Shown piece by piece: positions 5,726-16,491 of a stretch of 16,491 bases of DNA. This DNA comes from an uncultured Acidobacteriota bacterium (GTDB lineage: Bacteria; Acidobacteriota; Thermoanaerobaculia; UBA5066; DATFVB01), in assembly GCA_963813155.1 (NCBI GenBank), contig CAWEYG010000007.1, forward strand, positions 1-16,491, read 5' to 3'. Made by a program: the position numbers and the translations under genes. The notes below the pieces were generated by a model that was not told the origin of the DNA, did no database searches, and was given only the letters and a program-made list of their open reading frames with translations. Within the stretch, counting starts at the first letter, position 1. Each line of letters starts with the position of its first letter.

Positions 5726-5772
5726 GCGCAGGGACAGGGGAAAGCTCGCCCTCCAGCGTGTCGAGCCCGTTG

Positions 5773-6262
5773 CCGCGGGGCTCGGCACTCATCCGCTGGC
5801 ACGGCGCGGTCGATCAGAATGGAATCGATCCCCCGCGCCTCTAGCGATCGGCGCGACATCTCGCGTCTCAACCGACAACGGGGTTCTTCTTGCGCCTCAC
5901 TCATGGCCTGCGGACGAGCGCCTGCGCCCCGCGTCTAGCCCCACGCCACCCATGCGGCCTACGCTCGAGGGATGGGGCTCCACCCCCTGAGCGAAGGTCC
6001 GCGAGGTCGGGCCAAGCGCGCTTTGGTGCGAGCGTCGAGAGGGCAGCGAAGGGCGGCGTGCGAAGGCGGGAAGGGTGGCATGGGAGGAGACCCCCTTTTG
6101 CCGCTCGCGGCGCGGAGTCGTAGCAAAGTCCTCACATTCGCAGCGAGCGGAAAAGCGGGGCGAGTCCCATGACAGGCCCCTCGCCGGCCGAGCAGTCTCT
6201 CCGTCGCTAAAGCACGGCATCGACGCTCGCTCGCCGGGCCTGGGGCTGAAACCTCGCGGACC
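5773..6262 (-). repeat. Structured palindromic interspersed repeat, copy A (most complete)
   Basis: 5773-5935 is the reverse complement of 10316-10478 (ungapped, 17 mismatches in 163 nt by hand count). About 6070-6190 is the reverse complement of about 14990-15105. It contains two long imperfect hairpins (5774-5933 and 5996-6262). Confidence 0.85.
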
Positions 6263-6314: not shown

Positions 6315-6673
6315 GGGGGCGAAACGGTTTCGACGGGGATGCCTGGTCGGAACGTCGCATGCCGAGGTTCACTCGCCTCGTAAAAAAGGGTGAAAAAAAT
6401 AGTTGCGAACAGCAACCTCGCACTGGCTGCCTAATTTAGTTTAGCGTCAGCCACGTCCTTCCCGGAGCGCGCCCGCCGCGCTGGAAAAGGGCGCCGCAAA
6501 TGTGGGCTCATCCGGCAGGGTCCCCCGGCCCTGCAGGAGACATCAATTCGGGGTAGGTTCGGCGCGTTTGGTTCCTCTTTGAGCGCCGGATCGAGATGAA
6601 AGAGGAACTGAGCATGGAGTGGCGCTTCGATTCACTTCTTCGGACGCGGGTTCGACTCCCGCCGCCTCCACCA
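6315..6673 (+). ncRNA. ssrA: Transfer-messenger RNA
   Basis: 5' GGGGGCGAAACGGTTTCGACGGGG; 3' GACGCGGGTTCGACTCCCGCCGCCTCCACCA (T-arm, alanyl acceptor stem with G3-U, CCA). Tag frame 6405-6434 encodes ANSNLALAA*. Confidence 0.97.
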
Positions 6674-6872: not shown

Positions 6873-8138
6873 GTGAGAACCGCTCGCGTCCTGCTGACTG
6901 CCGCGATCTTCCTCGCGGGGGCCGGGGTCGCCATCCTGCGTCATCGGACACTGATCGCGGCCCGGGATCAGAAGCGCCTCGCCGCGGCAAGGGAAGGAGC
7001 GGCGAAGTTCGAGCGCCGCCAACTTGTCGGAAGGGAGCTTCGCAATGCCGGGTCTGCTGCGCAGCCGTTGGACTTCGCCCTGCGAACTCCGCCCTCGTCC
7101 GTCTTTCTTCCGAATGAAGAGAAACTCCACGCTCTGGCTGTTCCCGGAACGCGCGCCGTGCGCGTGGGTGACAAGGTCATTCAGCTCGTGGAGCTTCGCG
7201 GCTGGCTGCGATTCATCGATTCCGCCTGCAAGGCGAGCGACCCCGCCTGGTATTACCTGCTCGAACCGGATCTGGCCTGGAGCGACACAGTGGGCCTGCG
7301 GCCGAGCGACATCCTGCGGGTCGGCAACATTGCCGGCCTCGGAGATCGCCGTGGGGGAACTTCGCCGTGGCAAATCGAAAGTCGACCCCTCATCCGGATC
7401 GAATTCGGAGGCTGGGACGAACAGAAGCTTCGGGGTTCACCGCCCGAGGACTGGCGAGCCCGGGGTGCCTTCGGATGTCCCAACGTCTCCTTTGCTTTTG
7501 ACCCGCTTCATCCGGTTCCCGGGGGGCCGCGGCTTGCGCCGGGTCAGTACATCCGAGTCGTCGGATCGCTCGTTACCGACGCTCCCCACGCAACGAAGGC
7601 CACCGCCGGCGTGTGGCTCGTCCGAAATTTCGGCCTCGCGGTAGACCCGGAACACGTCATTCATGCCTGCGAGAGCGCATGGAGCGAAGGGGGAGAGGAA
7701 AACCCGGGCAACCCTGCCCGCTGGACGGAGATCCATCCTCCCGACCTGATCAAGCCTCTTCCGGCTCAGGAACCGTCGGAAGCGGTGATCGGCGTCGCCA
7801 TCTCCGGACCGGACGCGGCCCTTTCCGGACCGGCAGAGCCGATGGAGTTCTCGCTCGCGCCCCCCGGACCGCGCCCGGCCTGGGCTCGAGGTATCCGAGT
7901 TGTGGAAACGATTCTCCATGCCTGCCGAGAATCCGCCTTCGCGCGTTGCCTGGCTGCGTGCCACCTCGCGGAATACAAAAACCTGATCTCTGTTCGAATC
8001 GACCCGGAGTCGGCGAGTGCAGACAGGTTTGCGGCAATCTTTCGAGTCTCCTGGAGCCCCGAGGCGGATTCCTGGCTGGTCGAGAGGCCGGCAAACGCCC
8101 GGGATCCGTCCTCGCACCCCAAACCGGTCGGCCTATGA
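6873..8138 (+). CDS. Hypothetical membrane-anchored or secreted protein
   Basis: Long ORF; GTG 6873 follows a purine-rich SD-like tract and starts a hydrophobic segment. Contains GQYIRVVGSLVTDAPH...WTEIHPPD. Stop overlaps the next ATG (ATGA). Confidence 0.7.
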   Translation: MRTARVLLTAAIFLAGAGVAILRHRTLIAARDQKRLAAAREGAAKFERRQLVGRELRNAGSAAQPLDFALRTPPSSVFLPNEEKLHALAVPGTRAVRVGDKVIQLVELRGWLRFIDSACKASDPAWYYLLEPDLAWSDTVGLRPSDILRVGNIAGLGDRRGGTSPWQIESRPLIRIEFGGWDEQKLRGSPPEDWRARGAFGCPNVSFAFDPLHPVPGGPRLAPGQYIRVVGSLVTDAPHATKATAGVWLVRNFGLAVDPEHVIHACESAWSEGGEENPGNPARWTEIHPPDLIKPLPAQEPSEAVIGVAISGPDAALSGPAEPMEFSLAPPGPRPAWARGIRVVETILHACRESAFARCLAACHLAEYKNLISVRIDPESASADRFAAIFRVSWSPEADSWLVERPANARDPSSHPKPVGL

Positions 8139-9337
8139 GCCGTGACCCGCCTCGTTCTTCGCGGATCTCGATGCGCGCGGCGAGAGCTCTCTGGGTCCTG
8201 CTCGGCATCGCCGCGAGCGTCCATGTGCTCGTATCACCGGAACGACACAATCTGTGGCCGGTCTTTCGGAAGGGAGCGCTGGGTTGGTGGGGCGGGCGGA
8301 TCCTCTACGAGGGCACGGATTACTTCCGTTATAGCCCCGTCTTCGCGGCGCTGCTCGCGCCCTTTGCGGCGCTCCCCGGGTCGCTCGGGAACATTCTCTT
8401 CGATGTCCTGGGCCTCGGGCTTCTGTTCCACGCAATCCGCCGGCTCGCGCGCACGGTGTTTCCGGAACCGGTTCTGTGTCGAAACGAACCCGCGGTGCTC
8501 GCGCTGAGCCTTGTGGGCGTCGTTCGTTCGATATGGTCGTCGCAAGCGCACACCTGGACCGCGGCGGTCATTTTTCTGGCCGCCGTCGCCCTCGTGGAGC
8601 GACGGTGGTGGTTGGCGGCCTTCCTCCTGGCGCTCGGCGTGCATCTCAAGCTCGCTCCGATCGTGCTGGCCGGTGTCGTCGCGGTCCTCTGGCCCAGGAA
8701 GATGAGCTGGCGATTCGCCATCGCTCTCGTCACGCTCGCGCTGTTGCCATTCTTCAACGGGCAACCCGGGGCGGTCGTCGGAATGTACCGGGATTGTCAG
8801 GCGCGGTTGCAGGAGTTGACGGCCCTGCGATTGCCCGGTGTGCGGGATGTCCTGCATGTCTTCGAATCCCTCAACGTCGCGCTGCCGCTCGGCGCCTATC
8901 GGGCGATTCAAGCGCTTGGCGGACTCCTCGTCGTCGGCTGGGCCTGGCGGCTGCAACGGCGGGAGGTGCCTGCGGAGTGGCTGGTGAGCGGCTGCTTCGC
9001 GGTAACGATCGTTTACATGCTCGCGTTGGGGCCGGCCGTCGAGTTCGTGCAGTACCCGCTCCTCGCACCCTGGGTCAGCGCGGCGATGCTCGCCGCAAGG
9101 CCTCGATCAGGGGAGCGCCGCGCCCTCGCCATCCTCTACGCGATGACGATGGTCGCCGGATTTGGAGCGGTGGAGGATCTGCTCGGCAAGCTGATCCGCT
9201 CGAAGGCTTCGGAATCGTTGATCACGCTGGGTGCGATCGCGTTTGGCGTTTGGGTCGTTCTGAAATGGAGGCGTGCGGCCCCCTCCCGTGACGCGAAGGC
9301 CTTCGGAGAAATAGAAAGGGCTTTCGCGAAGACATGA
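8135..9337 (+). CDS. Glycosyltransferase family 87 (DUF2029, GT-C fold) membrane protein
   Basis: LYEGTDYFRYSPVFAALLAPFAALP, a Q motif, LALGVHLKLAP and multiple TM helices. ATGA overlaps at both ends. Confidence 0.82.
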   Translation: MSRDPPRSSRISMRAARALWVLLGIAASVHVLVSPERHNLWPVFRKGALGWWGGRILYEGTDYFRYSPVFAALLAPFAALPGSLGNILFDVLGLGLLFHAIRRLARTVFPEPVLCRNEPAVLALSLVGVVRSIWSSQAHTWTAAVIFLAAVALVERRWWLAAFLLALGVHLKLAPIVLAGVVAVLWPRKMSWRFAIALVTLALLPFFNGQPGAVVGMYRDCQARLQELTALRLPGVRDVLHVFESLNVALPLGAYRAIQALGGLLVVGWAWRLQRREVPAEWLVSGCFAVTIVYMLALGPAVEFVQYPLLAPWVSAAMLAARPRSGERRALAILYAMTMVAGFGAVEDLLGKLIRSKASESLITLGAIAFGVWVVLKWRRAAPSRDAKAFGEIERAFAKT

Positions 9338-9666
9338 AAACGAGGCTCGTGGTCGTCGTCGTGCTCGCTGTCCTGGCGGGGACATGGGCGTTCCTTCGAA
9401 CTCGGGAAGCGCCCGTGGCGCGGAAGGAAACGCGCCCGGTGACGATTGCGACAGATCTCTCCGTCGTCGCGGGTTGCAGGATGGTGAGAAGAGTCAATCT
9501 TTCCGGCAGAATTGGGACGAATGGAGTCGCGAAAGACGAGGCGGATCGTAACGCCAACCTCGAAGCGATCGCCGCGGATGCCGGCGGCGACACCGTGCTG
9601 ATTCTCGAGAGAACACCGAACTTCGTTCGAGGGGCGATCTATCGATGCGAAGACCCGGCGCCCTAA
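9334..9666 (+). CDS. Small exported protein, DUF4156-like
   Basis: Signal or anchor segment and the pattern GC...AADAGGDTVLI...GAIYRC with two Cys. Confidence 0.6.
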   Translation: MKTRLVVVVVLAVLAGTWAFLRTREAPVARKETRPVTIATDLSVVAGCRMVRRVNLSGRIGTNGVAKDEADRNANLEAIAADAGGDTVLILERTPNFVRGAIYRCEDPAP

Positions 9667-9726
9667 GCCCCGCCCGGGGTCGCGCCGCGTCCTCGCCAAG
9701 CGAACTTCGCGCGACGGCCGGCTGGT

Positions 9727-9770
9727 AGTGGGATATCCCACTTGACTCATATCCCACTCAGCGCGAGAAT
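9727..9770 (+). promoter_or_regulatory. TA promoter with palindromic operator
   Basis: Perfect 16-bp palindrome AGTGGGATATCCCACT (9727-9742) and an extra half-site ATATCCCACT (9749-9758). TTGACT-17-GAGAAT ends 6 nt before ATG 9777. Confidence 0.7.
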
Positions 9771-9776
9771 CGCTTC

Positions 9777-10073
9777 ATGAGCCAGGCCACTTCGTTCAAG
9801 TACGTCGCCCGGGTCCGCCCGGACTCGAAGGGACGCGTCACGCTCGGACGCCTGGGGAAAGACATCAGCAGTTATCGCGTGGCGGTGGATGGCGAAGGTC
9901 GAGTCCTTCTCGAGCCCTTCGTCGAAGTTCCCGCGCGCGAGCAATGGCTTTATGAAAACCCCGAGGCGTACTCGAGCGTCCGGCGTGGGCTAGCCCAGGC
10001 GGGGAAGGGTGAAACGGCTTCGCTCGGCTCGTTCGCCAGGCCCGCACCGAAAGCGCGCAAGCCCCGCAAGTGA
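9777..10073 (+). CDS. AbrB/MazE-like antitoxin
   Basis: DSKGRVTLG swapped-hairpin-like motif, then EQWLYENPEA...VRRGL. Coupled (GTGA) to a RelE-like ORF. Confidence 0.75.
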   Translation: MSQATSFKYVARVRPDSKGRVTLGRLGKDISSYRVAVDGEGRVLLEPFVEVPAREQWLYENPEAYSSVRRGLAQAGKGETASLGSFARPAPKARKPRK

Positions 10074-10204
10074 CCTTTCGCCTTCAGTTCACGAAGGAAG
10101 CGAAAGAGAACCTTCACAAACTCGAGTCGGACGGCGGACTCTCCAAGCGCCTCAAGGCGGTGAGAAAGGCTCTCGGTCTCCTCGAATCGAACCCGCGCCA
10201 CCCG
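10070..10204 (+). pseudogene. RelE/ParE-like toxin, 3'-truncated and fused to repeat copy B
   Basis: MTFRLQFTKEAKENLHKLE...KAVRKALGLLESNPRHP is a RelE-type N-terminal half. The rest of ORF 10070-10354 is repeat sequence homologous to copies A and C. Confidence 0.72.
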
Positions 10205-10478
10205 CCCTTCTGGCGCCGGCGCCTTTGGCCCGGACTCTCGCGGACCTTCGCTCAGGGAGTTAGGGCCCCAACACCGGCGAGCGAGACTCAGGAGTACGCT
10301 CTTCGGGCGGGCCGGGACGCGGGGCGCAGGCTCTCGTCCGCAGGCCATGAGTGAGGCGCAAGAAGAATCCCGTACTCAGTTGAGACGCGAGAGGTCGCGC
10401 CGAACGCTAGAGGCGCGGGGGACTGATTCCACTCCGACCGATCGTGCCGTGCCAGCGGACGAGTGCCGAGCTCCGAGG
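10192..10478 (+). repeat. Structured repeat, copy B (5'-truncated)
   Basis: 10192-10257 matches 15091-15157 directly; 10225-10257 and 10316-10478 match copy A in inverted orientation. Confidence 0.85.
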
Positions 10479-10676
10479 CCCGGGACCAGGATCTCCCGGC
10501 CCAAGCGAGCCGCCGCCCGGCGCGCTGCGTCTCCTCGAGGGAGGCATCGATGACCCGCCCGGGTACTCGCCGCGACCTCGCCGAGCGACCTTCGCGCGAT
10601 CATGCCCAGGCCGGGAGGCAATACTGCAAAACACGGATCCGACCCCAGGCACGACGTGCTGCCCTCCGCCGGCACG

Positions 10677-10705
10677 TGCTAGAATCGCGGGCAAAACAGA
10701 AGGAG
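10677..10705 (+). promoter_or_regulatory. Extended -10 (TGcTAGAAT) and SD (AAGGAG)
   Basis: TGnTAGAAT at 10677-10685; AAGGAG at 10700-10705, 5 nt before ATG 10711. Confidence 0.55.
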
Positions 10706-10710
10706 CGAAA

Positions 10711-11178
10711 ATGAAAAAGCGTCTCGGCGTCCTGCTCGGTACGGTTCTTCTGCTCGGCTTCTCGGCAACCGCGCTCGCGAAAGGCAAAGGGTCGAATCCC
10801 CAGTTCCCGGCGCCCCCTGCAGCGGGGTATTACGTCAACGAATGCACGGGTGAGATCTTCATCGAATGGGACCCGGTCGTCAGCAACGTCGACGGAAGCT
10901 CGCCGACGAAATACGCGATCCAGATTGTCCAGTCGCTCCGCAGCGGCTGCCCGGACGGCCCAATCGTCGCAACGAACGTCACGAATTTCACCGCTCCCGG
11001 CAACACCACGGAATTCGCCACGCCGCCCGGAACGCTCCAGTTTCCAGGCCCTCCCACCGCCTGCGGGCCGGACGACGTTGTCATCCTGATCAAGGCTCTC
11101 AACCCGCCCAGCAGGTCGCAGAACAACCCGCAGGTGATCGCCGAATTCGAAGGGGTCGGCGGCGGTCCCTGCATCTGA
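10711..11178 (+). CDS. Secreted hypothetical protein (possible FN3-like beta-sandwich)
   Basis: Strong SD, signal peptide MKKRLGVLLG...ALA, IEWDPV...TKYAIQI pattern, four Cys, followed by a terminator. Confidence 0.75.
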   Translation: MKKRLGVLLGTVLLLGFSATALAKGKGSNPQFPAPPAAGYYVNECTGEIFIEWDPVVSNVDGSSPTKYAIQIVQSLRSGCPDGPIVATNVTNFTAPGNTTEFATPPGTLQFPGPPTACGPDDVVILIKALNPPSRSQNNPQVIAEFEGVGGGPCI

Positions 11179-11207
11179 CCGGACGACTCCCGGACCCGGT
11201 TTGATCC

Positions 11208-11240
11208 GCCCCCTTCGGCCCGCGCCGGAGGGGGCTTTTT
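11208..11240 (+). terminator. Rho-independent terminator
   Basis: GCCCCCTTCGGC-ccgc-GCCGGAGGGGGC followed by TTTTT. Confidence 0.85.
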
Positions 11241-11325
11241 CGTGCCGGGCTTCTCCGCGTTTTCCCTGAACGCTTCTCTCGCCAGCAGCGCGGCCGACCG
11301 GCCGGTATAATTTGACGGAGTCAAG

Positions 11326-11535
11326 ATGAGTCGTTACGAAGTGATCATCTACTGGAGCGCCGAGGACGAAGCCTTCGTGGCCGAGGTCCCGGAGCTCCCC
11401 GGCTGCGCGGCGGACGGCGCTACCCGCGAGGAGGCGCTCGCCAGCGCCGAAGTCGTCATCCAGGAATGGATCGAGACGGCGCGCGAGCTGGGTCGCCCTA
11501 TCCCGGAGCCCAAGGGCCGCCTGATCTTCGCGTAG
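11326..11535 (+). CDS. hicB: HicB family antitoxin (short form, no adjacent HicA)
   Basis: YEVIIYWSAEDEAFVAEVPELPGCAADGATREEAL...WIETARELGRPIPEP; GGAG SD upstream. Confidence 0.92.
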   Translation: MSRYEVIIYWSAEDEAFVAEVPELPGCAADGATREEALASAEVVIQEWIETARELGRPIPEPKGRLIFA

Positions 11536-11558
11536 GCCCAGCGGCTCCAGGCTCCCAA

Positions 11559-11590
11559 ATTCAACATTCAAAATTTAGAATTCACAATTC
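11559..11590. repeat. AT-rich heptamer tandem repeat
   Basis: ATTCAAC ATTCAAA ATTTAGA ATTCACA ATTC. Confidence 0.7.
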
Positions 11591-11750
11591 TTCGGCCTCT
11601 GGCCGAAGCCATGTCCCCAAACCCCCGGAGGCGCGATGGGAAGGGGTAAGATAGGATTTCGCCGTTCCGATTGGAGGCAGATTTGCTTCTCTCGCGCGGT
11701 GTTCGGCTGCGTTGGATTGACGTTCGAACTCTTTCTGGCGGGTGCCTGGA

Positions 11751-12002
11751 GTGAAATTCACTAAGCATCAGCTTGAGGCCATCGAGCATGATGGTCGGAA
11801 CCTCCAGCTGATTGCCTGCGCCGGCTCCGGCAAGACCGAGGTTGTCGCTCGGCGCGTGGTCCACCTGTTGACACCCGGCAGGAAAGACGCCCTCACTCCG
11901 CGCAACATCATCGCCTTCACCTTTACCGACAAGGCCGCGGCCGAGCTGAAGGAACGGGTCGTCACGCGAACTCGCCAGGCACTCGGAGAGATCCCGGGGA
12001 TG
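11751..12002 (+). pseudogene. UvrD/PcrA-like SF1 helicase, N-terminal fragment
   Basis: Q-motif (FTKHQLEAI), Walker A ACAGSGKT and motif Ia IIAFTFTDKAAAELKERV. Similarity stops after GEIPGM, before the expected TxH motif; the ORF ends at 12152. Confidence 0.85.
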
Positions 12003-12105
12003 ACGTACGGGTCATTGCTGAGTTTGTGGGGGTGCTCGGTGGCTCCAGATAGGCAAGAGGAGCGTTGGAAAGAACTACCGGCGTCGAGATATGTCGGGGG
12101 GCGAT

Positions 12106-12197
12106 TAGGGTCAGATCTGTGTTTTTACGGTAGCCGTCGCTCAGAGGCGTGAAGGCGTGAAACGTGAAGACGTGAAGGTGGTGGCGCGAAGGCGTGA
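12106..12197 (+). repeat. Degenerate boundary motif plus (AG)GCGTGA tandem repeats
   Basis: TAGGGTCAGATCTGTGTTTTT, then AGGCGTGA AGGCGTGA AACGTGA AGACGTGA ... AGGCGTGA. The same short repeats follow the motif at 15200. Confidence 0.5.
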
Positions 12198-12198
12198 G

Positions 12199-12468
12199 CT
12201 AGAGCTTTTTCAGGAATCGGCGAATCTCGTCGTGGGTACCGAGCAACAACACGAAGAGGCGAGCCTTTTCCTGACGGAACAGGATTCTCAGATCAATACC
12301 CACCCGAGCCTCAAAGAGTTTGCCGCGAAGCTTTCGAACCCCGCGATGAGCGTGCGGTTTTCCGAAGTCGTTTTCGAGTCTTGTGAGAGCAGAAGCAACT
12401 TGATCGACTCTTGCCTCCGGGAGCGCGCCTAGAGCCCGCTCGAAAGCCTCCGCGGTCTCAATTTTCAA
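12199..12468 (-). CDS. RelE/ParE superfamily toxin
   Basis: 89 aa; FERAL, HRGVRKLRGKLFEARVGIDLRILF and C-terminal LGTHDEI. TTG start overlaps the antitoxin stop. Confidence 0.8.
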   Translation of the reverse strand: MKIETAEAFERALGALPEARVDQVASALTRLENDFGKPHAHRGVRKLRGKLFEARVGIDLRILFRQEKARLFVLLLGTHDEIRRFLKKL

Positions 12469-12740
12469 GCGCGCGTTTTCTTCTTTGTTCGCCGGGTGCT
12501 TTTCAGGAGATCAGCCACGCTGTCGTAAGTCCGAGTCCGTCCTCCGCGCCGCTCGGCGTCGGCCCAGGCGTTGAGCTTCGACGCGTCGGCGGCGCTCAGC
12601 TGAAAGTCCTCTTCGCCCACGGGAGTCAGGCGAACCGCCGGCTTGCCGTGGCGGCTGATGACGACGGTCTCACCCCGCTCCGCGAGCCGAATGAGCGTTC
12701 CCAGTTCGATCTTCGCTTCGGAAAGAGATCTAAATTTCAT
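12465..12740 (-). CDS. Phd/YefM family antitoxin
   Basis: SLSEAK..LGTLIRLAERGETVVISRHGKPAVRLTP. Confidence 0.88.
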   Translation of the reverse strand: MKFRSLSEAKIELGTLIRLAERGETVVISRHGKPAVRLTPVGEEDFQLSAADASKLNAWADAERRGGRTRTYDSVADLLKSTRRTKKKTRA

Positions 12741-12760
12741 ACCAAAGATTGTACTCTGGT
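12741..12760 (-). promoter_or_regulatory. Operator inverted repeat enclosing the -10 box of phd-relE
   Basis: ACCAGAG-TACAAT-CTTTGGT directly before ATG on the minus strand. Confidence 0.6.
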
Positions 12761-12767
12761 TTATAGG

Positions 12768-12822
12768 CGTGCCCCAAGCCGTTCAGGGGTTTAATGGGGA
12801 CGGTCTTGTTTTGGTGTATTAC
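12768..12822 (+). repeat. Boundary motif copy 1
   Basis: TGGGGACGGTCTTGTTTTGGTGTATTAC (12795-12822), preceded by the inverted arm CGTGCCCCA (12768-12776). Confidence 0.85.
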
Positions 12823-12871
12823 GTGGCGGCCCGACGGAGAGCGTCCACAGCGCGGGAGTAAGATCGCAGAG

Positions 12872-13345
12872 ATGAAGACAGCCATTTTCCTTCTCCTCCT
12901 TGCAGCCTCGGCCTCGGCCGCGGGAGCCGCGGCGCCCGACGCCCAGCCGGGGATCGACGCCTTCAACCGCGCGGTGATCGACGCGACGAAGAAAATGGAT
13001 GACGGCGCGAGCCTCGCGCTCTGGGAGGACGACGGTGTGAGCATTCTCCCGAATTCGAAGCCGCTCTCCGGCAAGCCTGCCATCGAGGCGTTCCTTCGGA
13101 CGGTCGCCGAGCAGACGAAGGGCGCGCGCATGGAGTCGTTCTGGATGGGGTGCGTCACGATCGCGGTCTCGGGCGACACCGCGTCGGAGCGATGCGTCGA
13201 GCACCAGGTGGTTCGGTTCCCGGGCGACAAGCCCCCGTTCGACGGCTGGGGGAACCTCCTCTACGTCCTCCACCGGGGAGGCGACGGGCATTGGCGGATC
13301 CGCGCGGAAATGTGGAACGCGGCGCTTCCCGGTTCGGCGCCCTGA
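12872..13345 (+). CDS. Secreted NTF2/SnoaL-like (DUF4440) protein
   Basis: Signal peptide MKTAIFLLLLAASASA, then LWEDDGVSIL..SGKPAIEAF, VSGDTA and LYVLHRGGDGHWRI. Confidence 0.82.
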   Translation: MKTAIFLLLLAASASAAGAAAPDAQPGIDAFNRAVIDATKKMDDGASLALWEDDGVSILPNSKPLSGKPAIEAFLRTVAEQTKGARMESFWMGCVTIAVSGDTASERCVEHQVVRFPGDKPPFDGWGNLLYVLHRGGDGHWRIRAEMWNAALPGSAP

Positions 13346-13410
13346 CCGCTACTTCGCCGCGGGCAGGTCCTTCAGTGGTAATTGACCCCTCAGGCCGCCG
13401 AGTGTTGAGA

Positions 13411-13561
13411 AACGTCCCAGCCCGGAAAGACGGGATGGGGACGGTCTTGTTTTCGTGTATTACTCTGAAACGAGTCACGAGTGGCGAGCTGAGAGTCGAG
13501 GGTCGGACGTGAAATCGCCGACGAGGGCGATTCCCGCCCCGGCTCAGTGGTCGGGGCAAGC
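13411..13561 (+). repeat. Boundary motif copy 2 (extended)
   Basis: Hairpin CGTCCCA-GCCCG-gaaaga-CGGGA-TGGGGACG; core 13436-13463 has 1 mismatch to copy 1. Followed by degenerate heptamers ACGAGTC ACGAGTG GCGAGCT GAGAGTC GAGGGTC, then GGCGATTCCC and a hairpin GCCCCGGC...GTCGGGGC. Confidence 0.85.
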
Positions 13562-13728
13562 TTTGCGCGGGAATGACCGCGGGTGAGCCTTCTACTCCAA
13601 TCCCGCCGCCAGGCTCAGGACTTCCCGACTCCGTTCGATTGTTGCGTTATGATCTCGGGCTGACAGTCGTCAATCGATTCTTGGGCTCGCGAGGCGGCTC
13701 CTCCGGGCAGGACGCGAAAGGGAGAATC

Positions 13729-14914
13729 ATGCACGCCCGTACGTTTCGACTCGCCGCGGCGGCCGCCGGGGTCCTCGTCCTCGCGGGGGCCGCGATCCTC
13801 GAAGCGGACATCGACTGGAGAAGCAAGGGAGCCGTGACGCCGGTCAAGAACCAGGGCACGACTTCGTTCGACGCCTCGTGGGCTTTCGCCGTCACCGGGG
13901 CGGTCGAGGGGTATCGGGCGATCAACAGCGGATCGCTGACCTCTCTTTCGGAACAGCAGTTGATCGACTGCGTTCCTGCCGTCGGGGACTGCGCCGATCC
14001 GCTCTGCGGGCAGGCGCCGTGCGGCCTGAACTTCGCCATGACCAACGGGCTCGCCAGCGAAAGCGCCTATCCGTATACCGGCCTTCAGGGAACGTGCAAG
14101 GTGCCCACCCCGGTGGCGACCATCCCCGGGTGGACGCGGCTCGTCGGAGAGACCGGGATCGCGGGGGCGCTCAGCAGCGGCCCCGTCATCGCCCGCCTTT
14201 CGATCGGCGACCACGGGACCCCCATCGCGGCCTGGACGTCCTACGCGGGCGGACCCTTCCCGGCGTCGGCGGCGTCGGCCTACGACGACACGGTTCATCA
14301 GTGGGTGCTCATCGTCGGATACTCTTCGAGTCTCTACACCATCAAGAATTCGATCGGAACGTCGTGGGGAAGCTCGGGGTACCTGTTTCTTCCGCGCGGT
14401 TTCAATGCGCTCGGCGTGGGAGACGACGCTTATGCGCCCTCGATCGACACGGCGCACGGCGCCTGCGCGCTGCCCGGCGGCGCGTGCCAGGACATGACCG
14501 CGGCCGATTGCACGACGGCCGGCGGAATTTATGGGGGAGATCTGTCGTTCTGCCCGGCCTCCTGCGGCACCTGCGCCGACGATGCGACGCCGCCCGTCAT
14601 TCGCGCGAGCGCGATCCCGCGTCCGGCGAAGAAGGGGAGCGGGACATTGACGCTGACGGTAGCCGGTACGGCAACCGACGATTGCACGCTCGACCGGTCG
14701 TCCGGGGAGTACTGGGTCACGGACTCGTATCGACCCGGGGGCTCCGATCGTCCCGAATCCGGTGACGTTTGGCGAGGACGGCTCGTTCAGCTTCCCCGTG
14801 TCGCTCGCCGCGACGCGCATCGGCAAGCGCGCACACGTTTACAAGATTTTCGTGAGCGCCCGGGATGCCGCGGGGAACACAGCGACGATCACCATCGCCG
14901 TTCCCATCACCTGA
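13729..14914 (+). CDS. Secreted papain-family (C1A) peptidase-like protein with Cys-rich and Ig-like C-terminal domains; frameshift near 14731
   Basis: DWRSKGAVTPVKNQG, SWAFA, SLSEQQLIDC, ESAYPYTG, VLIVGY and IKNSIGTSWGSSGY. After TAT C GAC the +1 frame reads DPGAPIVP...YKIFVSARDAAGNTATITIAVPIT* (stop 14912-14914). GGGAGA SD before ATG 13729. Confidence 0.85.
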
Positions 14915-14960
14915 GCGCTCGTCGAGTCCGGTTCGCGTTGGGGGATTCGAGACTTCGTCA

Positions 14961-15171
14961 GCCCGACTCGCGGTTCGCCCCGCGCCGGCTCGGTGAGCGG
15001 GTCCTGTCGCAGGACTCGCTCCGCTTTTCCGCTCGCCGAGCCAGAGGACTTTGCTACACCCGCGTTGCGAGCGGCAAAAGGGAGTCTTGCCCCGCGCCAC
15101 CCGCCATCCTTGCGTCGGCGCCTTTGGCCCCACCGCTCTCGGGCTTTCGCTCAGGGGCGAGGCCTCGTCCC
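14961..15171 (+). repeat. Structured repeat, copy C (3'-truncated)
   Basis: Rod hairpin 14961-15144 with central stem CTTTTCCGCTCGC / GCGAGCGGCAAAAG and loop motif GAGGACTTTGCTAC shared with copy A. Confidence 0.85.
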
Positions 15172-15199
15172 GCGAAATTAGCGGATTTGGGATAGCTGC

Positions 15200-15304
15200 T
15201 GGGGACGGTCTTGCTTTTCGCGTATTACCTTGAATGCGAGTCGTAAGGCGTGAGGGCGTGAGGCGTGGCGGCGATTCCCCCCCGACTCGCGGTCGGGCCA
15301 AAGC
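15200..15304 (+). repeat. Boundary motif copy 3 (extended)
   Basis: TGGGGACGGTCTTGCTTTTCGCGTATTAC (15200-15228), GGCGTGA repeats, GGCGATTCCC and hairpin CCCGAC-tcgcg-GTCGGG. Upstream inverted arm CGTCCC at 15166-15171. Confidence 0.85.
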
Positions 15305-15312
15305 GTACTCGG

Positions 15313-15350
15313 TATACGTGAGTTGCGTATATCCGCAAGTTGCGTATAAT
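15313..15350 (+). promoter_or_regulatory. higBA promoter with tandem operators
   Basis: TATACG-N7-CGTATA (15313-15331) and TATCCG-N7-CGTATA (15330-15348) overlap TTGCGT-16-TATAAT. Confidence 0.75.
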
Positions 15351-15356
15351 TAAGTG

Positions 15357-15698
15357 GTGAAGGCGGTCTTCGTCGAGTTGCCGGCTTTCGAGCGGCATCG
15401 TGAGAGGCATCTCGATGATGAAGATTTCCGGCGCCTTCAGGCGGACCTGATGGTGAATCCCCAGGCGGGAGACGTTATCGAAGGAACCGGAGGCCTTCGA
15501 AAACTTCGATTCGCCGACTCACGGCGCGGCAAGGGGAAACGCGGCGGCCTTCGGGTGATCTACTACTGGTGGATCGCCGGATTGCAGTTCTGGCTGTTCA
15601 CCGTGTATGGCAAGGGAGAACTGGATGATCTCACGCCGCAAGAGCGGAAAGATCTCAGGGCGATGATCAAGGCCGAGTTGAAGGCAAGGAGCAAGTGA
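15357..15698 (+). CDS. higB: HigB/RelE family toxin (HigB-2-like)
   Basis: FVELPAF, NPQAGDVIEGTGGLRKLRF, RGKGKRGGLRVIYY and LFTVYGKGE. Start is GTG 15357 or 15354. Confidence 0.92.
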   Translation: MKAVFVELPAFERHRERHLDDEDFRRLQADLMVNPQAGDVIEGTGGLRKLRFADSRRGKGKRGGLRVIYYWWIAGLQFWLFTVYGKGELDDLTPQERKDLRAMIKAELKARSK

Positions 15699-16045
15699 TG
15701 AAATCAGTCCGCAAGAAGAAACATGGGCTCACCGCAAAGCGCAATCTCTTCGCCGAGCTGTCGGAGGGTGTGAAGGCTTTGGCGGACGAGCGGCTGGGAA
15801 AACGGACGCTGCGGACGCATGCCGTAGAGTTCAAACCCGCTCCGGAGGTGACTCCCGCGGAGCTAATTCGCGTAAGAAGGCATCTGAATCTCTCTCGTCC
15901 CTTATTTGCCGTCTACTTGCGGACAAATGTTCGCACGTTGGAGAATTGGGAACAGGGGCGCGCCAGGCCAAACGCTCAGGCTGCGCTGCTTATCCGACTC
16001 GTAAAGCGGTTTCCCGACACGGTCGCGAGGCTCGCGGCGATCTAG
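15698..16045 (+). CDS. higA: HigA-like XRE/HTH antitoxin
   Basis: NLFAELSEGV...VRRHLNLSRPLFAVYLRTNVRTLENWEQGRARPNAQAALLIRLV; lies downstream of the toxin with an AAGGAG SD. Start is ATG 15698 or GTG 15695. Confidence 0.9.
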   Translation: MKSVRKKKHGLTAKRNLFAELSEGVKALADERLGKRTLRTHAVEFKPAPEVTPAELIRVRRHLNLSRPLFAVYLRTNVRTLENWEQGRARPNAQAALLIRLVKRFPDTVARLAAI

Positions 16046-16141
16046 GAAACCTGTTTCTCAATCGCTCCTGCAATTGTGCGAAGGCCCAGTTTCGCGATGC
16101 CAGGCATAAACCCGGGAGTCCGGGAGTCGTAAAATCGTTTG

Positions 16142-16471
16142 ATGGGACGTTCGTGGGTTCCTTTCGTTCTCTCCGGCGCCCTCGTCGTGTGGGGCGTGGC
16201 GTTGTCGATGTCTTCTCGAACCGCCCGGGCGAACACGCCCCCGTCTGCCGTCCCTCCGGTCGCGAGCGCCTTCGAGACCACCGTGCGGCCGATTCTCCGG
16301 GCCCGATGCCAGCCGTGCCATTTCGCGGGCGGGAAGATCTATGACCACCTTCCGTTCGACAACGAAGACGTTGTGCGGAGGCTCGGAACGGGCCGGCTGT
16401 TCACGCGGTTGAAGGACGAGAAGGATCGCGCCGCGATACGGGCGTTCCTCCAGGAGAAGACGGCGCGCTGA
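16142..16471 (+). CDS. Small exported c-type cytochrome-like protein
   Basis: Signal peptide and F...VRPIL...CQPCH with a single CxxCH heme-binding motif. Confidence 0.7.
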   Translation: MGRSWVPFVLSGALVVWGVALSMSSRTARANTPPSAVPPVASAFETTVRPILRARCQPCHFAGGKIYDHLPFDNEDVVRRLGTGRLFTRLKDEKDRAAIRAFLQEKTAR

Positions 16472-16491
16472 CCATCCTTCACTTCTTCGGG

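Follow-up and report, generated by a model that had tools for sequence, protein, structure and literature searches.

Downstream of the tmRNA gene ssrA, the window (the whole stretch of 16,491 nucleotides that was analysed) enters a variable region with repeats, in which copies of a 28-bp motif stand between small, unrelated genes. The question raised by this locus is what the motif is and whether the neighbouring genes are moved by it. The 28-bp motif is probably the terminal inverted repeat (TIR) of the TIRtron family of tyrosine-transposase elements, present here as gene-less solo copies between toxin-antitoxin (TA) and accessory genes, and the locus would thus be a new example of a known repeat kind and not a new gene-capture system.

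Copies of the motif in the window and the genome

The near-identical cores noticed at 12795, 13436 and 15200 in the sequence-only reading are real and far beyond chance. As shown in Table 1, two of them have the sequence TGGGGACGGTCTTGTTTT[G/C]GTGTATTAC on the plus strand, for which 200 shuffles gave no match, and the third has one inserted base and one substitution. A gapped form of the motif pattern matched six places in the genome while its reversed control matched none, and an nhmmer profile gave nine matches with E<0.01 in the 3.8 Mb genome. The MAG contains about ten solo copies, five of which differ from one another by at most one base. The motif has no self-complementarity and no dyad symmetry.

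The copy at 12106 had been described as degenerate. This description was not correct: AGGGTCAGATCTGTGTTTT at 12107-12125 is not decayed but a member of a second (sister) subtype (GGGGTCAGATCTGT...), which flanks intact transposase genes in relatives. Positions 12099-12138 share 95% identity, across 40 bases, with a copy from a related genome (G001:C11). Two TIR subtypes were distinguished in the window, both as solo copies with no gene; the type-A sequence is GGGGACGGTCTTG...GTATTAC and that of type B is GGGGTCAGATCTGT.... The start of type A, GGGGACGG, agrees with the published GGGG[AT][CG]A[CG] at seven of eight positions, since position 7 is G instead of A. The type-B start in relatives, GGGGTCAG, agrees at all eight positions, and the window's own type-B starts, AGGGTCAG (12107) and GGGGTCGG (10646), agree at seven of eight each. 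The four copies first recognised do share one orientation, but further copies on the minus strand lie upstream of them (10628-10646 and the truncated 11609-11619).

Table 1. Positions of genes, TIR copies and other repeats in the window
Feature	Position	Strand	Basis
tmRNA gene ssrA	6315..6673	+	Rfam RF00023, 195.7 bits; ARAGORN
Type-B-like TIR copy GGGGTCGGATCCGTGTTTT	10628..10646	-	3 mismatches to type-B pattern
Truncated type-A TIR (TGGGGACATGG on minus strand)	11609..11619	-	
UvrD/REP-type helicase, N-terminal fragment	11742..12000	+	Pfam PF00580, 8.2e-19, profile positions 2-72 of 271
Type-B TIR copy	12107..12135	+	earlier called degenerate
Tandem array AGGCGTGA, period 8, 7 copies	12145..12197	+	TRF
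Putative toxin, 89-aa ORF overlapping phd	12199..12468	-	no recognised family
Phd/YefM-family antitoxin	12465..12740	-	PF02604, 8.6e-10; TIGR01552, 2.5e-9
Type-A TIR copy 1	12795..12822	+	sequence, pattern and nhmmer
SnoaL/DUF4440-like protein	12863..13345	+	Pfam SnoaL_4, 2e-8; TIGR02246, 4.2e-5, under cut-off
Type-A TIR copy 2	13436..13463	+	sequence, pattern and nhmmer
Papain-family (C1) cysteine peptidase gene	13730..14914	+	PF00112, 4.6e-28
Hairpin repeat of an abundant family unrelated to the TIR, one copy	14953..15160		dozens of BLAST matches genome-wide
Type-A TIR copy 3	15200..15228	+	one inserted base, one substitution
Tandem array GAGGCGT, period 7, about 4 copies	15238..15267	+	TRF
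higBA-like toxin-antitoxin pair	15354..16045	+	RelE-fold toxin, MqsA/HTH antitoxin

Genes and repeats between the copies

Unrelated units do lie between the copies, with phd, SnoaL-like, papain-like and higBA genes all recovered, but the name relE given to the ORF beside phd remained unconfirmed because this ORF had no match in Pfam, NCBIfam or PDB sequences. The ORF is kept together with phd in G003:C256. The hydrophobic N-terminus of the SnoaL/DUF4440-like protein is, judged from the translation, a putative signal peptide. The peptidase gene has an apparent frameshift near 14731-14765, and the base at 14731 is absent in one soil-metagenome contig.

Broken UvrD sequence within the array was confirmed as the N-terminal fragment found by Pfam. 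The second sequence described as broken, repeat copy C, is indeed a repeat, but it belongs to the separate hairpin family with dozens of copies. Tandem repeats of 7-8 nt had been seen after three copies; two of these arrays were recovered, while the one after 13436 was too degenerate for TRF. Arrays of spaced CGTGA occur at only six places in the genome, and four of the six adjoin a TIR or a TIR remnant. Neither strong co-occurrence with TA genes nor adjacent 7-8-nt tandem arrays are predicted by the TIRtron explanation.

The motif encloses Y1 transposase genes in relatives and metagenomes

A TIRtron is a small element with one TIRYT (TIR-associated tyrosine transposase) gene, encoding a Y1_Tnp core and a DnaA-C-like HTH, between two inverted GGGG-headed repeats. 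Such an arrangement was found in soil metagenome locus L101, where type-A TIRs at 749 (+) and 1748 (-) enclose an intact 315-aa ORF (784-1731) that matched Y1_Tnp (3e-14), Bac_DnaA_C (8.1e-10; the HTH is C-terminal and DnaA-like) and NF047646 (71 bits; the genes compared with this model scored 71-80 bits, the cut-off being 80). Loci L038 and L033 matched Y1_Tnp with 7.8e-12 and 3.4e-13 and Bac_DnaA_C with 8.5e-9 and 1.1e-3, respectively. In G001:C14 and G004, type-A copies lie directly 5' of truncated 5' ends of the Y1 gene, and these fragments read MARQVRIEYPGALYHVMSRG... and VARQARIEFPGTLYHVISR....

Type-B copies enclose intact genes of 315-316 aa in G003, G006 and G004. Their arms measure 29 nt in G003 (83% complementary), 27 nt in G006 (93%) and 21-22 nt in G004 (91-95%). 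Among the 15 Y1 ORFs recovered by script from 20 loci in order-level relatives, 10 have flanking inverted repeats headed by GGGTCAG. Copy numbers are low and the copies lie in clusters. G004 has 16 type-B and 4 type-A matches in five clustered places plus one single match, and one TIR cluster sits directly downstream of its ssrA. The repeat is found in both orientations and as inverted dimers in relatives. One of the two alternatives in the sequence-only reading, stacked ends of non-autonomous elements on which an HUH/Y1 (RAYT-like) transposase acts in trans, is supported in that the motif is the inverted repeat that encloses Y1_Tnp plus Bac_DnaA_C genes, in L101 for type A and in relatives for type B.

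These features match those given for the family in the sections of the two source papers that describe it: TIRs have GGGGWSAS in common and are found singly, in dimers or in groups, with a sharp group of TIRYTs from Acidobacteria (Di Nocera, De Gregorio & Rocco 2013, PMC3733652), and Bac_DnaA_C/HTH domains are present in TnpA-Y1 subclass 2.1 (Quentin et al. 2018, PMC6006769). The TIRtron assignment rests on the identity of the motif to TIRs around intact genes, on the truncated genes that follow it and on the way its copies cluster at hot spots of accessory genes.

In the sections of the same papers that deal with TIRYTs, no experiment is reported in which a TIR is cut or moved by any of them, and the mechanism was inferred by analogy with RAYT/REP and IS200/IS605 for this reason. 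The solo copies may be TIRtron insertions from which the gene was later deleted; alternatively, single ends may have been dispersed in a REP-like manner by an enzyme acting in trans. The HUH domain likely acts on the GGGG-headed outer part of the repeat, and the HTH domain likely has its site in the inner, A/T-rich part. The copies would persist in permissive 3' intergenic spacers between TA and defence modules downstream of ssrA.

In this genome, a PF01797 profile scan for a Y1 gene gave no match, and the best hit in a TIRYT protein search had an E value of 0.049. The MAG is 90.8% complete, so that a TIRYT gene may simply be missing from the assembly, and the copies would be orphans unless a gene absent from the MAG serves them. 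A difference of one base at most among five copies is unexpected for long-orphaned relics and counts against viewing them as such.

Possible gene-capture array

The sequence-only reading put forward an integron-like gene-capture array, in which cargo would be exchanged at the motif. The evidence on recombinases, collinearity, higBA, hot spots and the orientation of the repeats in relatives did not support this. The repeats are not attC sites, as had already been recognised, since the sequence contains no RYYYAAC ... GTTRRRY cores and only a short one-sided arm. No recombinase gene was found near the array; the genome has four PF00589 matches (C6:93.8k, C2:645.7k and two at C3:295k), none of them in C7, C8 or the C2 end.

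In its wider form, this explanation posits a cargo system of integron-like or IS200-like type that recombines at the repeats: a Y1 enzyme in trans would excise and insert TIR-bounded one-gene or TA units, and arrays would be built at hot spots, the ssrA flank being one example. We consider it unlikely. A unit of putative toxin and phd on the minus strand between two TIRs is common to the window and G003:C256, which is from a different genus, with both TIRs at equivalent positions and unrelated DNA beyond them, and metagenome locus L121 also has this unit. On the other hand, the second haplotype of the window (C2:876101-884869) is collinear with it at 92% identity and shows no cargo swap, and the higBA unit (15314-16046) recurs in G004 at 75% identity with no TIR beside it, the homology ending before the TIR of the window is reached.

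A TIR lies exactly at the synteny breakpoint between G001:C11 and G000:C1, and contigs C7 and C8 of the MAG split immediately beside the truncated TIR at 11609-11619; metagenome contig L104 has a full TIR at this C7/C8 junction. However, the second C7/C8 breakpoint, at 11647, is without a TIR, and at the C2:623k hot spot TA cargo differs between G000 and G001 with breakpoints at conserved flanking genes and the TIR internal. No joints or circle junctions at TIRs were found in four sequencing runs, which yielded tiny contigs only. Because two breakpoints coincide with copies, the repeats may still take part in rearrangements.

TA genes were found within about 1 kb of type-A TIRs at 8 of 12 Acidobacteria-like metagenome loci, but they were nearby at only 2-3 of 24 other loci. 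Direct TIR pairs about 1 kb apart with small genes inside are present in L098, whereas the geometry of TIRs and TA genes is variable overall: TIRs stand singly or in direct or inverted pairs, and TA genes lie on either strand. A related proposal is that TIRYT ends, instead of being mere relics, are cis sites of a single-strand HUH system that repeatedly seeds, shuffles or stabilises TA and defence cassettes at a small number of chromosomal hot spots, as a functional integron analogue built on a Y1 transposase; to this we likewise give only a small chance. The hot spots named for it are the ssrA flank and a monooxygenase/kinase spacer, and an HTH-bound, DnaA-box-like inner half would tie such a system to replication forks.

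Possible transcription-level role and possible assembly artefact

The upstream inverted arms described for the three clear copies are present, although they have little length and do not characterise the family. In this genome, 6 of 7 copies have an exact complement of 5 nt or more; among 22 copies from other sources 3 have one, and the rate in shuffles is 18%. Fold z-scores of eight copies were between -1.84 and +1.42, those of the window's four between -0.82 and +1.42.

Such arms could make the copies terminators or insulators between accessory genes, that is, a co-opted repeat acting mainly at the RNA or transcription level, with the upstream arm pairing with GGGGACG and the following TCTTGTTTT serving as U-tract. 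The copies do lie 3' of gene ends, frequently between convergent genes, and the 5' arms of the copies at 15200 and C1:830553 pair via G-U wobbles, which is workable only in plus-strand RNA. The exact CGTCCC arm, 17-28 nt upstream, is present at 3 of 7 copies in this genome, above the level of about 5% in shuffles, and REPs in general are reported in PMC3733652 to be transcribed and to be located 3' of genes. Nevertheless, a terminator scan of 9500-16491, which looks for a T-run after a G+C-rich stem whose loop has 3-8 nt, gave six sites, none of which is a motif copy, because the loops of the copies are too long. Fold energies of the copies were no better than those of shuffles, 19 of the 22 copies from other sources lack the arm, and conservation of the motif extends 10 nt past the T-run. 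This role is very improbable.

It is barely conceivable that a chimeric metagenome bin gave rise to the pattern as an artefact, with multi-strain collapsed repeats stitched into one small contig. The bin does contain three versions of the ssrA locus (C7, C8 and C19), the C2 end duplicates the window at 92% identity as a mosaic of 100% and 75-85% blocks, and the contamination figure is 3.76%, but small contigs from independent soil and rhizosphere runs are identical to the window over copy 1 (12675-12905) and over copy 2 (13146-13500 as well as 13316-13479), another one (13427-13749) crosses copy 2 with 6 letters different, and the same repeat occurs in similar settings in relatives and in unrelated metagenomes.

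Comparison with known systems

REP/REPIN sequences with RAYTs are likewise short intergenic repeats akin to the sequences that flank a Y1 transposase gene of domesticated appearance, lie mainly after genes and are thought to be spread in trans. They are defined as palindromes of 20-40 nt that have a GTAG (or CGTC) foot and number more than 100, whereas the motif is non-palindromic, is without a GTAG foot and has about 10 copies instead of hundreds. IS200/IS605 elements and their gene-less derivatives, PATEs, share the Y1/HUH enzyme; their one-strand direct ends could in principle bound cargo, and their orientation can follow the direction of replication. However, the ends of IS200/IS605 are subterminal hairpins without inverted repeats, while the intact elements here have true inverted repeats, and no cleavage tetranucleotide was defined here.

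Integron attC arrays resemble the locus in having short conserved sites between unrelated one-gene or TA units on the chromosome. Here, in contrast, an IntI gene, an R''/R' core and a conserved folded site with two arms are all lacking; the cassettes lie on both strands, some with their own operators, and the site matches a transposase TIR. In Acinetobacter plasmids, 28-bp XerC/D sites bound small pdif modules, in which TA genes are often present. These sites are imperfect palindromes that alternate in orientation and on which tyrosine recombinases act, unlike the motif, which lacks dyad symmetry.

The closest match is TIRtron/TIRYT (PMC3733652; equal to subclass 2.1 of PMC6006769), which in the family descriptions of these papers shares GGGG-headed inverted repeats of about 28 nt, one gene of about 315 aa, a Y1/HUH core with a Bac_DnaA_C-type HTH, a distinct Acidobacteria group and moderately abundant solo, dimeric and grouped repeats. 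The window differs in having solo copies only, the enzyme gene not being assembled, and in that its copies cluster with TA modules and short tandem arrays, a link of which no mention was found in the family descriptions of these papers or among the titles and abstracts listed by literature searches. An apparently new integron-like array is thus filed under a class described in 2013 and almost unstudied experimentally. The class gains two TIR subtypes, A and B, from Thermoanaerobaculia, as well as clusters of orphan TIRs downstream of ssrA in two genera. Two leads would, if confirmed, be informative on what TIRYTs do. One is the co-occurrence of TIRs with TA modules, sometimes at rearrangement breakpoints. 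The other is the inner half of the type-B TIR, which resembles a DnaA box in its sequence and would give the DnaA-like domain of the enzyme a target.

Probable Terminal Inverted Repeats in the ssrA Region

As listed in the table, the near-identical cores that the sequence-only reading reported at 12795, 13436 and 15200 proved to be real, and the pattern shared by the first two did not occur by chance in shuffled sequence. The motif consists of an outer half, GGGGACGG, and an inner half, GTGTATTAC. A profile built from five copies identified nine genomic sites at E<0.01, three on the window contig (C7), two on C8, three on C2 and one on C1, together with two weaker sites. The copy at 12106, which had been called degenerate, instead belongs to a sister subtype (type B, the main 28-bp motif being type A), the sequence type bracketing intact Y1 genes in relatives. 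The genes between the copies were broadly as described earlier, except that the "relE" ORF beside phd had no family match. Judged from sequence comparison, the motifs in the accessory-gene region downstream of ssrA very probably form a cluster of orphan terminal inverted repeats (TIRs), which belong to TIRYT/TIRtron elements and fall into two subtypes.

Features of the window and inverted repeats of Y1 genes in relatives
Feature	Location	Strand	Length	Remarks
ssrA	6315-6673			Earlier identification confirmed
Type-B-like copy	10628-10646	minus		
Type-B copy	12107-12125			Called "degenerate" in the sequence-only reading
Motif copies 1 and 2 (type A)	12795-12822; 13436-13463			TGGGGACGGTCTTGTTTT[G/C]GTGTATTAC; 0 matches in 200 shuffles
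Third copy (type A)	15200-15228			One base inserted and one substitution
Type-B inverted repeats	G003		29 nt	83% complementary
Type-B inverted repeats	G006		27 nt	93% complementary
Type-B inverted repeats	G004		21-22 nt	91-95% complementary

Downstream of ssrA, a switch of polarity was observed in the window (10628-12135) and in a locus of the relative G004 (L041, 1136-12600), with minus-strand TIRs nearer ssrA and plus-strand TIRs further away. The GGGG heads thereby face each other over the intervening DNA in both genomes, which is the reverse of the TIRtron arrangement.

Y1 Transposase Genes in Relatives and Metagenomes

The 27-nt pattern, allowing up to three mismatches, was found in three of 41 related genomes including this one, while the reversed control gave none. 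In G001, a genome of the same genus, the motif lies 8 bases ahead of an ORF that starts with MARQVRIEYPGALYHVMSRG and is then broken off. This 66-aa fragment returned nothing in a Pfam search and was identified as Y1 because its N-terminus is near-identical to that of the intact protein of L101. The rhizosphere metagenome contig L101 carries a complete element, with type-A repeats at 749 (+) and 1748 (−) and an intact ORF at 784-1731 encoding 315 aa (Y1_Tnp, 3e-14; Bac_DnaA_C, 8.1e-10). A Y1_Tnp scan found genes in 26 of the 41 genomes of the order and none in this genome, a MAG of 23 contigs (3.8 Mb, 66% G+C, 90.8% complete) of which the window is one entire contig. Intact genes of the sister genus encode 315-316 aa with Y1_Tnp and a Bac_DnaA_C helix-turn-helix, and the inverted repeats bracketing them start with GGGGTCAGATCTGT or, in G006, with GGGGTCAGTTCT. 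G004 has type A ahead of another truncated Y1 gene. Scripted recovery from 20 loci of order-level relatives yielded GGGTCAG-headed flanking inverted repeats for 10 of 15 Y1 ORFs, one of the ten being from an unpublished genome (G008). Inverted dimers of about 90-110 nt with a type-A head were present in Deltaproteobacteria-type MAGs and in G004. The earlier suggestion of a Y1/RAYT-like enzyme was therefore correct, since the motif forms the inverted repeats of genes encoding Y1_Tnp and Bac_DnaA_C domains in L101 and in relatives.

The name TIRtron was coined for exactly such elements, and TIRYT for their enzyme, by Di Nocera et al. (2013, PMC3733652), in whose available text GGGGWSAS is the head common to many TIRs, TIR families are moderately abundant as singles, dimers and groups, and Acidobacteria are the sharpest TIRYT group. 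Most TIRYTs were placed in TnpA-Y1 subclass 2.1, with a C-terminal Bac_DnaA_C or HTH domain, in the available part of Quentin et al. (2018, PMC6006769). Type-B copies of the relatives match the TIRtron consensus fully, whereas type A matches it at seven of eight positions. The orphan-TIR cluster is a fresh example of a class already known though little studied.

In five loci (L033, L038, L040, L041 and L043), TT[AT]T[ACG]CAC[TC] occupies a constant position in the type-B inner half, TIR bases 16-24, and 9 of 26 copies agree with the DnaA-box consensus TT[AT]TNCACA at eight of nine positions. The likeness of type A is weaker (7-8 of 9) and on the opposite strand (window 12812-12822 and 13453-13463). 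In the same available part of Quentin et al. (PMC6006769), only the outer 8 nt were compared with the DnaA box. Because of its resemblance to this box, the TIR inner half could be a candidate target of the DnaA-like domain of TIRYT.

Versions of the ssrA Locus and the Gene-Capture Model

The ssrA region is duplicated in contigs C8 and C19 of the same MAG with 86-99% identity. Window positions 7755-16491 are collinear with the final 8.8 kb of C2 at 92% identity, and gene order and repeat positions are identical in the two copies, so this natural comparison revealed no exchange of cargo. C7 and C8 part ways after 11647, beyond which type I restriction-modification fragments occur on C8, along with an IS30-family element and another two copies of the motif. 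Portions of the window were contained in 20 public read runs (best share 0.30), none of those listed being an RNA run. In four soil and rhizosphere runs compared, which gave contigs of only 122-361 nt, several small contigs crossed copies 1 and 2, mostly without differences, and thus supported the assembly locally; no joint was found at any repeat in these contigs.

Reading NEVERTHELESS as a cassette array, assembled by integron-like capture, is not supported and appears quite unlikely. Some observations agree with it. The window and contig C256 of the relative G003 share a conserved unit in which the putative toxin and phd genes (minus strand; window 12199..12740) lie between two TIRs, about 70 nt away on the toxin side and about 55 nt on the phd side, with unrelated DNA beyond both repeats; a TIR-bounded unit of this kind was also present in the metagenome locus L121. 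On G001:C11, about 370 bp of this genome are replaced by other genes over 2.6 kb, and the switch falls precisely at a TIR; the second C7/C8 breakpoint directly adjoins a truncated TIR (11609-11619), which is complete at this junction in a metagenome contig. However, the second haplotype at the end of C2 is collinear with the window. G004 has a TIR-less counterpart of the higBA unit (15314-16046) that is 75% identical, and this homology stops short of the TIR and tandem array of the window. At the C2:623k hot spot, different toxin-antitoxin (TA) cargo lies between the same two conserved genes in this genome and G001, with breakpoints at those genes and the TIR internal; the other C7/C8 breakpoint, at 11647, has no TIR. 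In G004, 16 type-B and four type-A matches, some in one orientation and some in the other, occur at five clustered places and one single site, and their neighbours are an Imm40 immunity gene, a DNA methylase, a trypsin-like peptidase and unknown ORFs. No recombinase genes were found near the TIR clusters of this genome.

The motif was also rejected as a tmRNA-derived att repeat of tandem ssrA islands (by inspection, neither tmRNA gene end convincingly resembles it), as the end of the C8 IS30-family element (it lies outside the element's own inverted repeats) and as a promoter (no fitting −35/−10 geometry; the scan gave a single unrelated site). No copy was called terminator-like. Rfam at E≤1 returned nothing in the window besides tmRNA.

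Toxin-Antitoxin Genes near the TIRs

Recognisable TA genes were located within about 1 kb of the TIR in 8 of 12 metagenome loci with an Acidobacteria-type TIR tail, a subset picked by repeat sequence and not by neighbours, these being raw counts without a formal background model. The types were Phd, BrnT/CopG, VapBC, MazF, YoeB/YefM, HicB, DUF433 and BrnT/CopG with AbiEii. The other 24 metagenome loci, from other taxa and including motif matches within ordinary genes, had TA genes nearby in two or three and Y1 genes in two (scan of 154 ORFs minus the last four). Distant Phd homologues (19 loci) were so divergent that they gave no information on whether the cassettes move. The repeated company of TIRs and TA genes and the coincidence of TIRs with some breakpoints are worth following.

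The TA hot spot is the spacer between FAD monooxygenase and Ser/Thr kinase genes, at C2:622.9-624.9k (L011) and on G001:C14 (L081). It holds mazEF and DUF488 in this genome and an unrelated minus-strand gene pair in G001; in G004 (L093), the monooxygenase gene is closely followed by a higBA pair. Another locus of G001:C14 (L017, 7728-9577) contains an RHS-repeat protein C-terminus and a hydrophobic 161-aa ORF, which may be a candidate immunity protein, directly before a type-A TIR and a truncated Y1 gene; BrnT-like, RHH-MazF and PIN modules follow.

Inverted Arms and Other Repeats

The window does have the upstream inverted arms described earlier, though they are short. A perfect upstream complement of at least 5 nt accompanied six of seven copies of this genome, three of 22 elsewhere and 18% of shuffles, and the folding energies of the copies were no better than those of shuffles. 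In two copies the arm looks like an inverted TIR that has decayed through A-to-G changes; a degenerate head-to-head dimer would agree with this, and so would G-U pairing in RNA. Spaced CGTGA arrays are scarce, with six in the genome, four of them adjoining a TIR or TIR remnant, and short tandem duplications lie beside TIRs in other loci too; slippage at such sites, the sole explanation we offer, may account for them.

The papain-family peptidase gene shifts frame at window 14731-14765; as a base is missing at 14731 in one metagenome contig, this may be an assembly error or strain polymorphism. A 171-nt inverted pair (5772-5942 and 10309-10479, 88% complementary) flanks the ssrA region. An abundant hairpin repeat, which belongs to a different family from the TIRs and has dozens of copies across the genome, occurs at 6073-6180, 10192-10257 and 14953-15160. 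The IS30-family element of C8 (L008, 6190-7270; HTH_38 and rve) is inserted in a short repeat, GGCGATTC...GCGGGAATGAC, which also follows TIR copy 2 at about 13517-13580 of the window.
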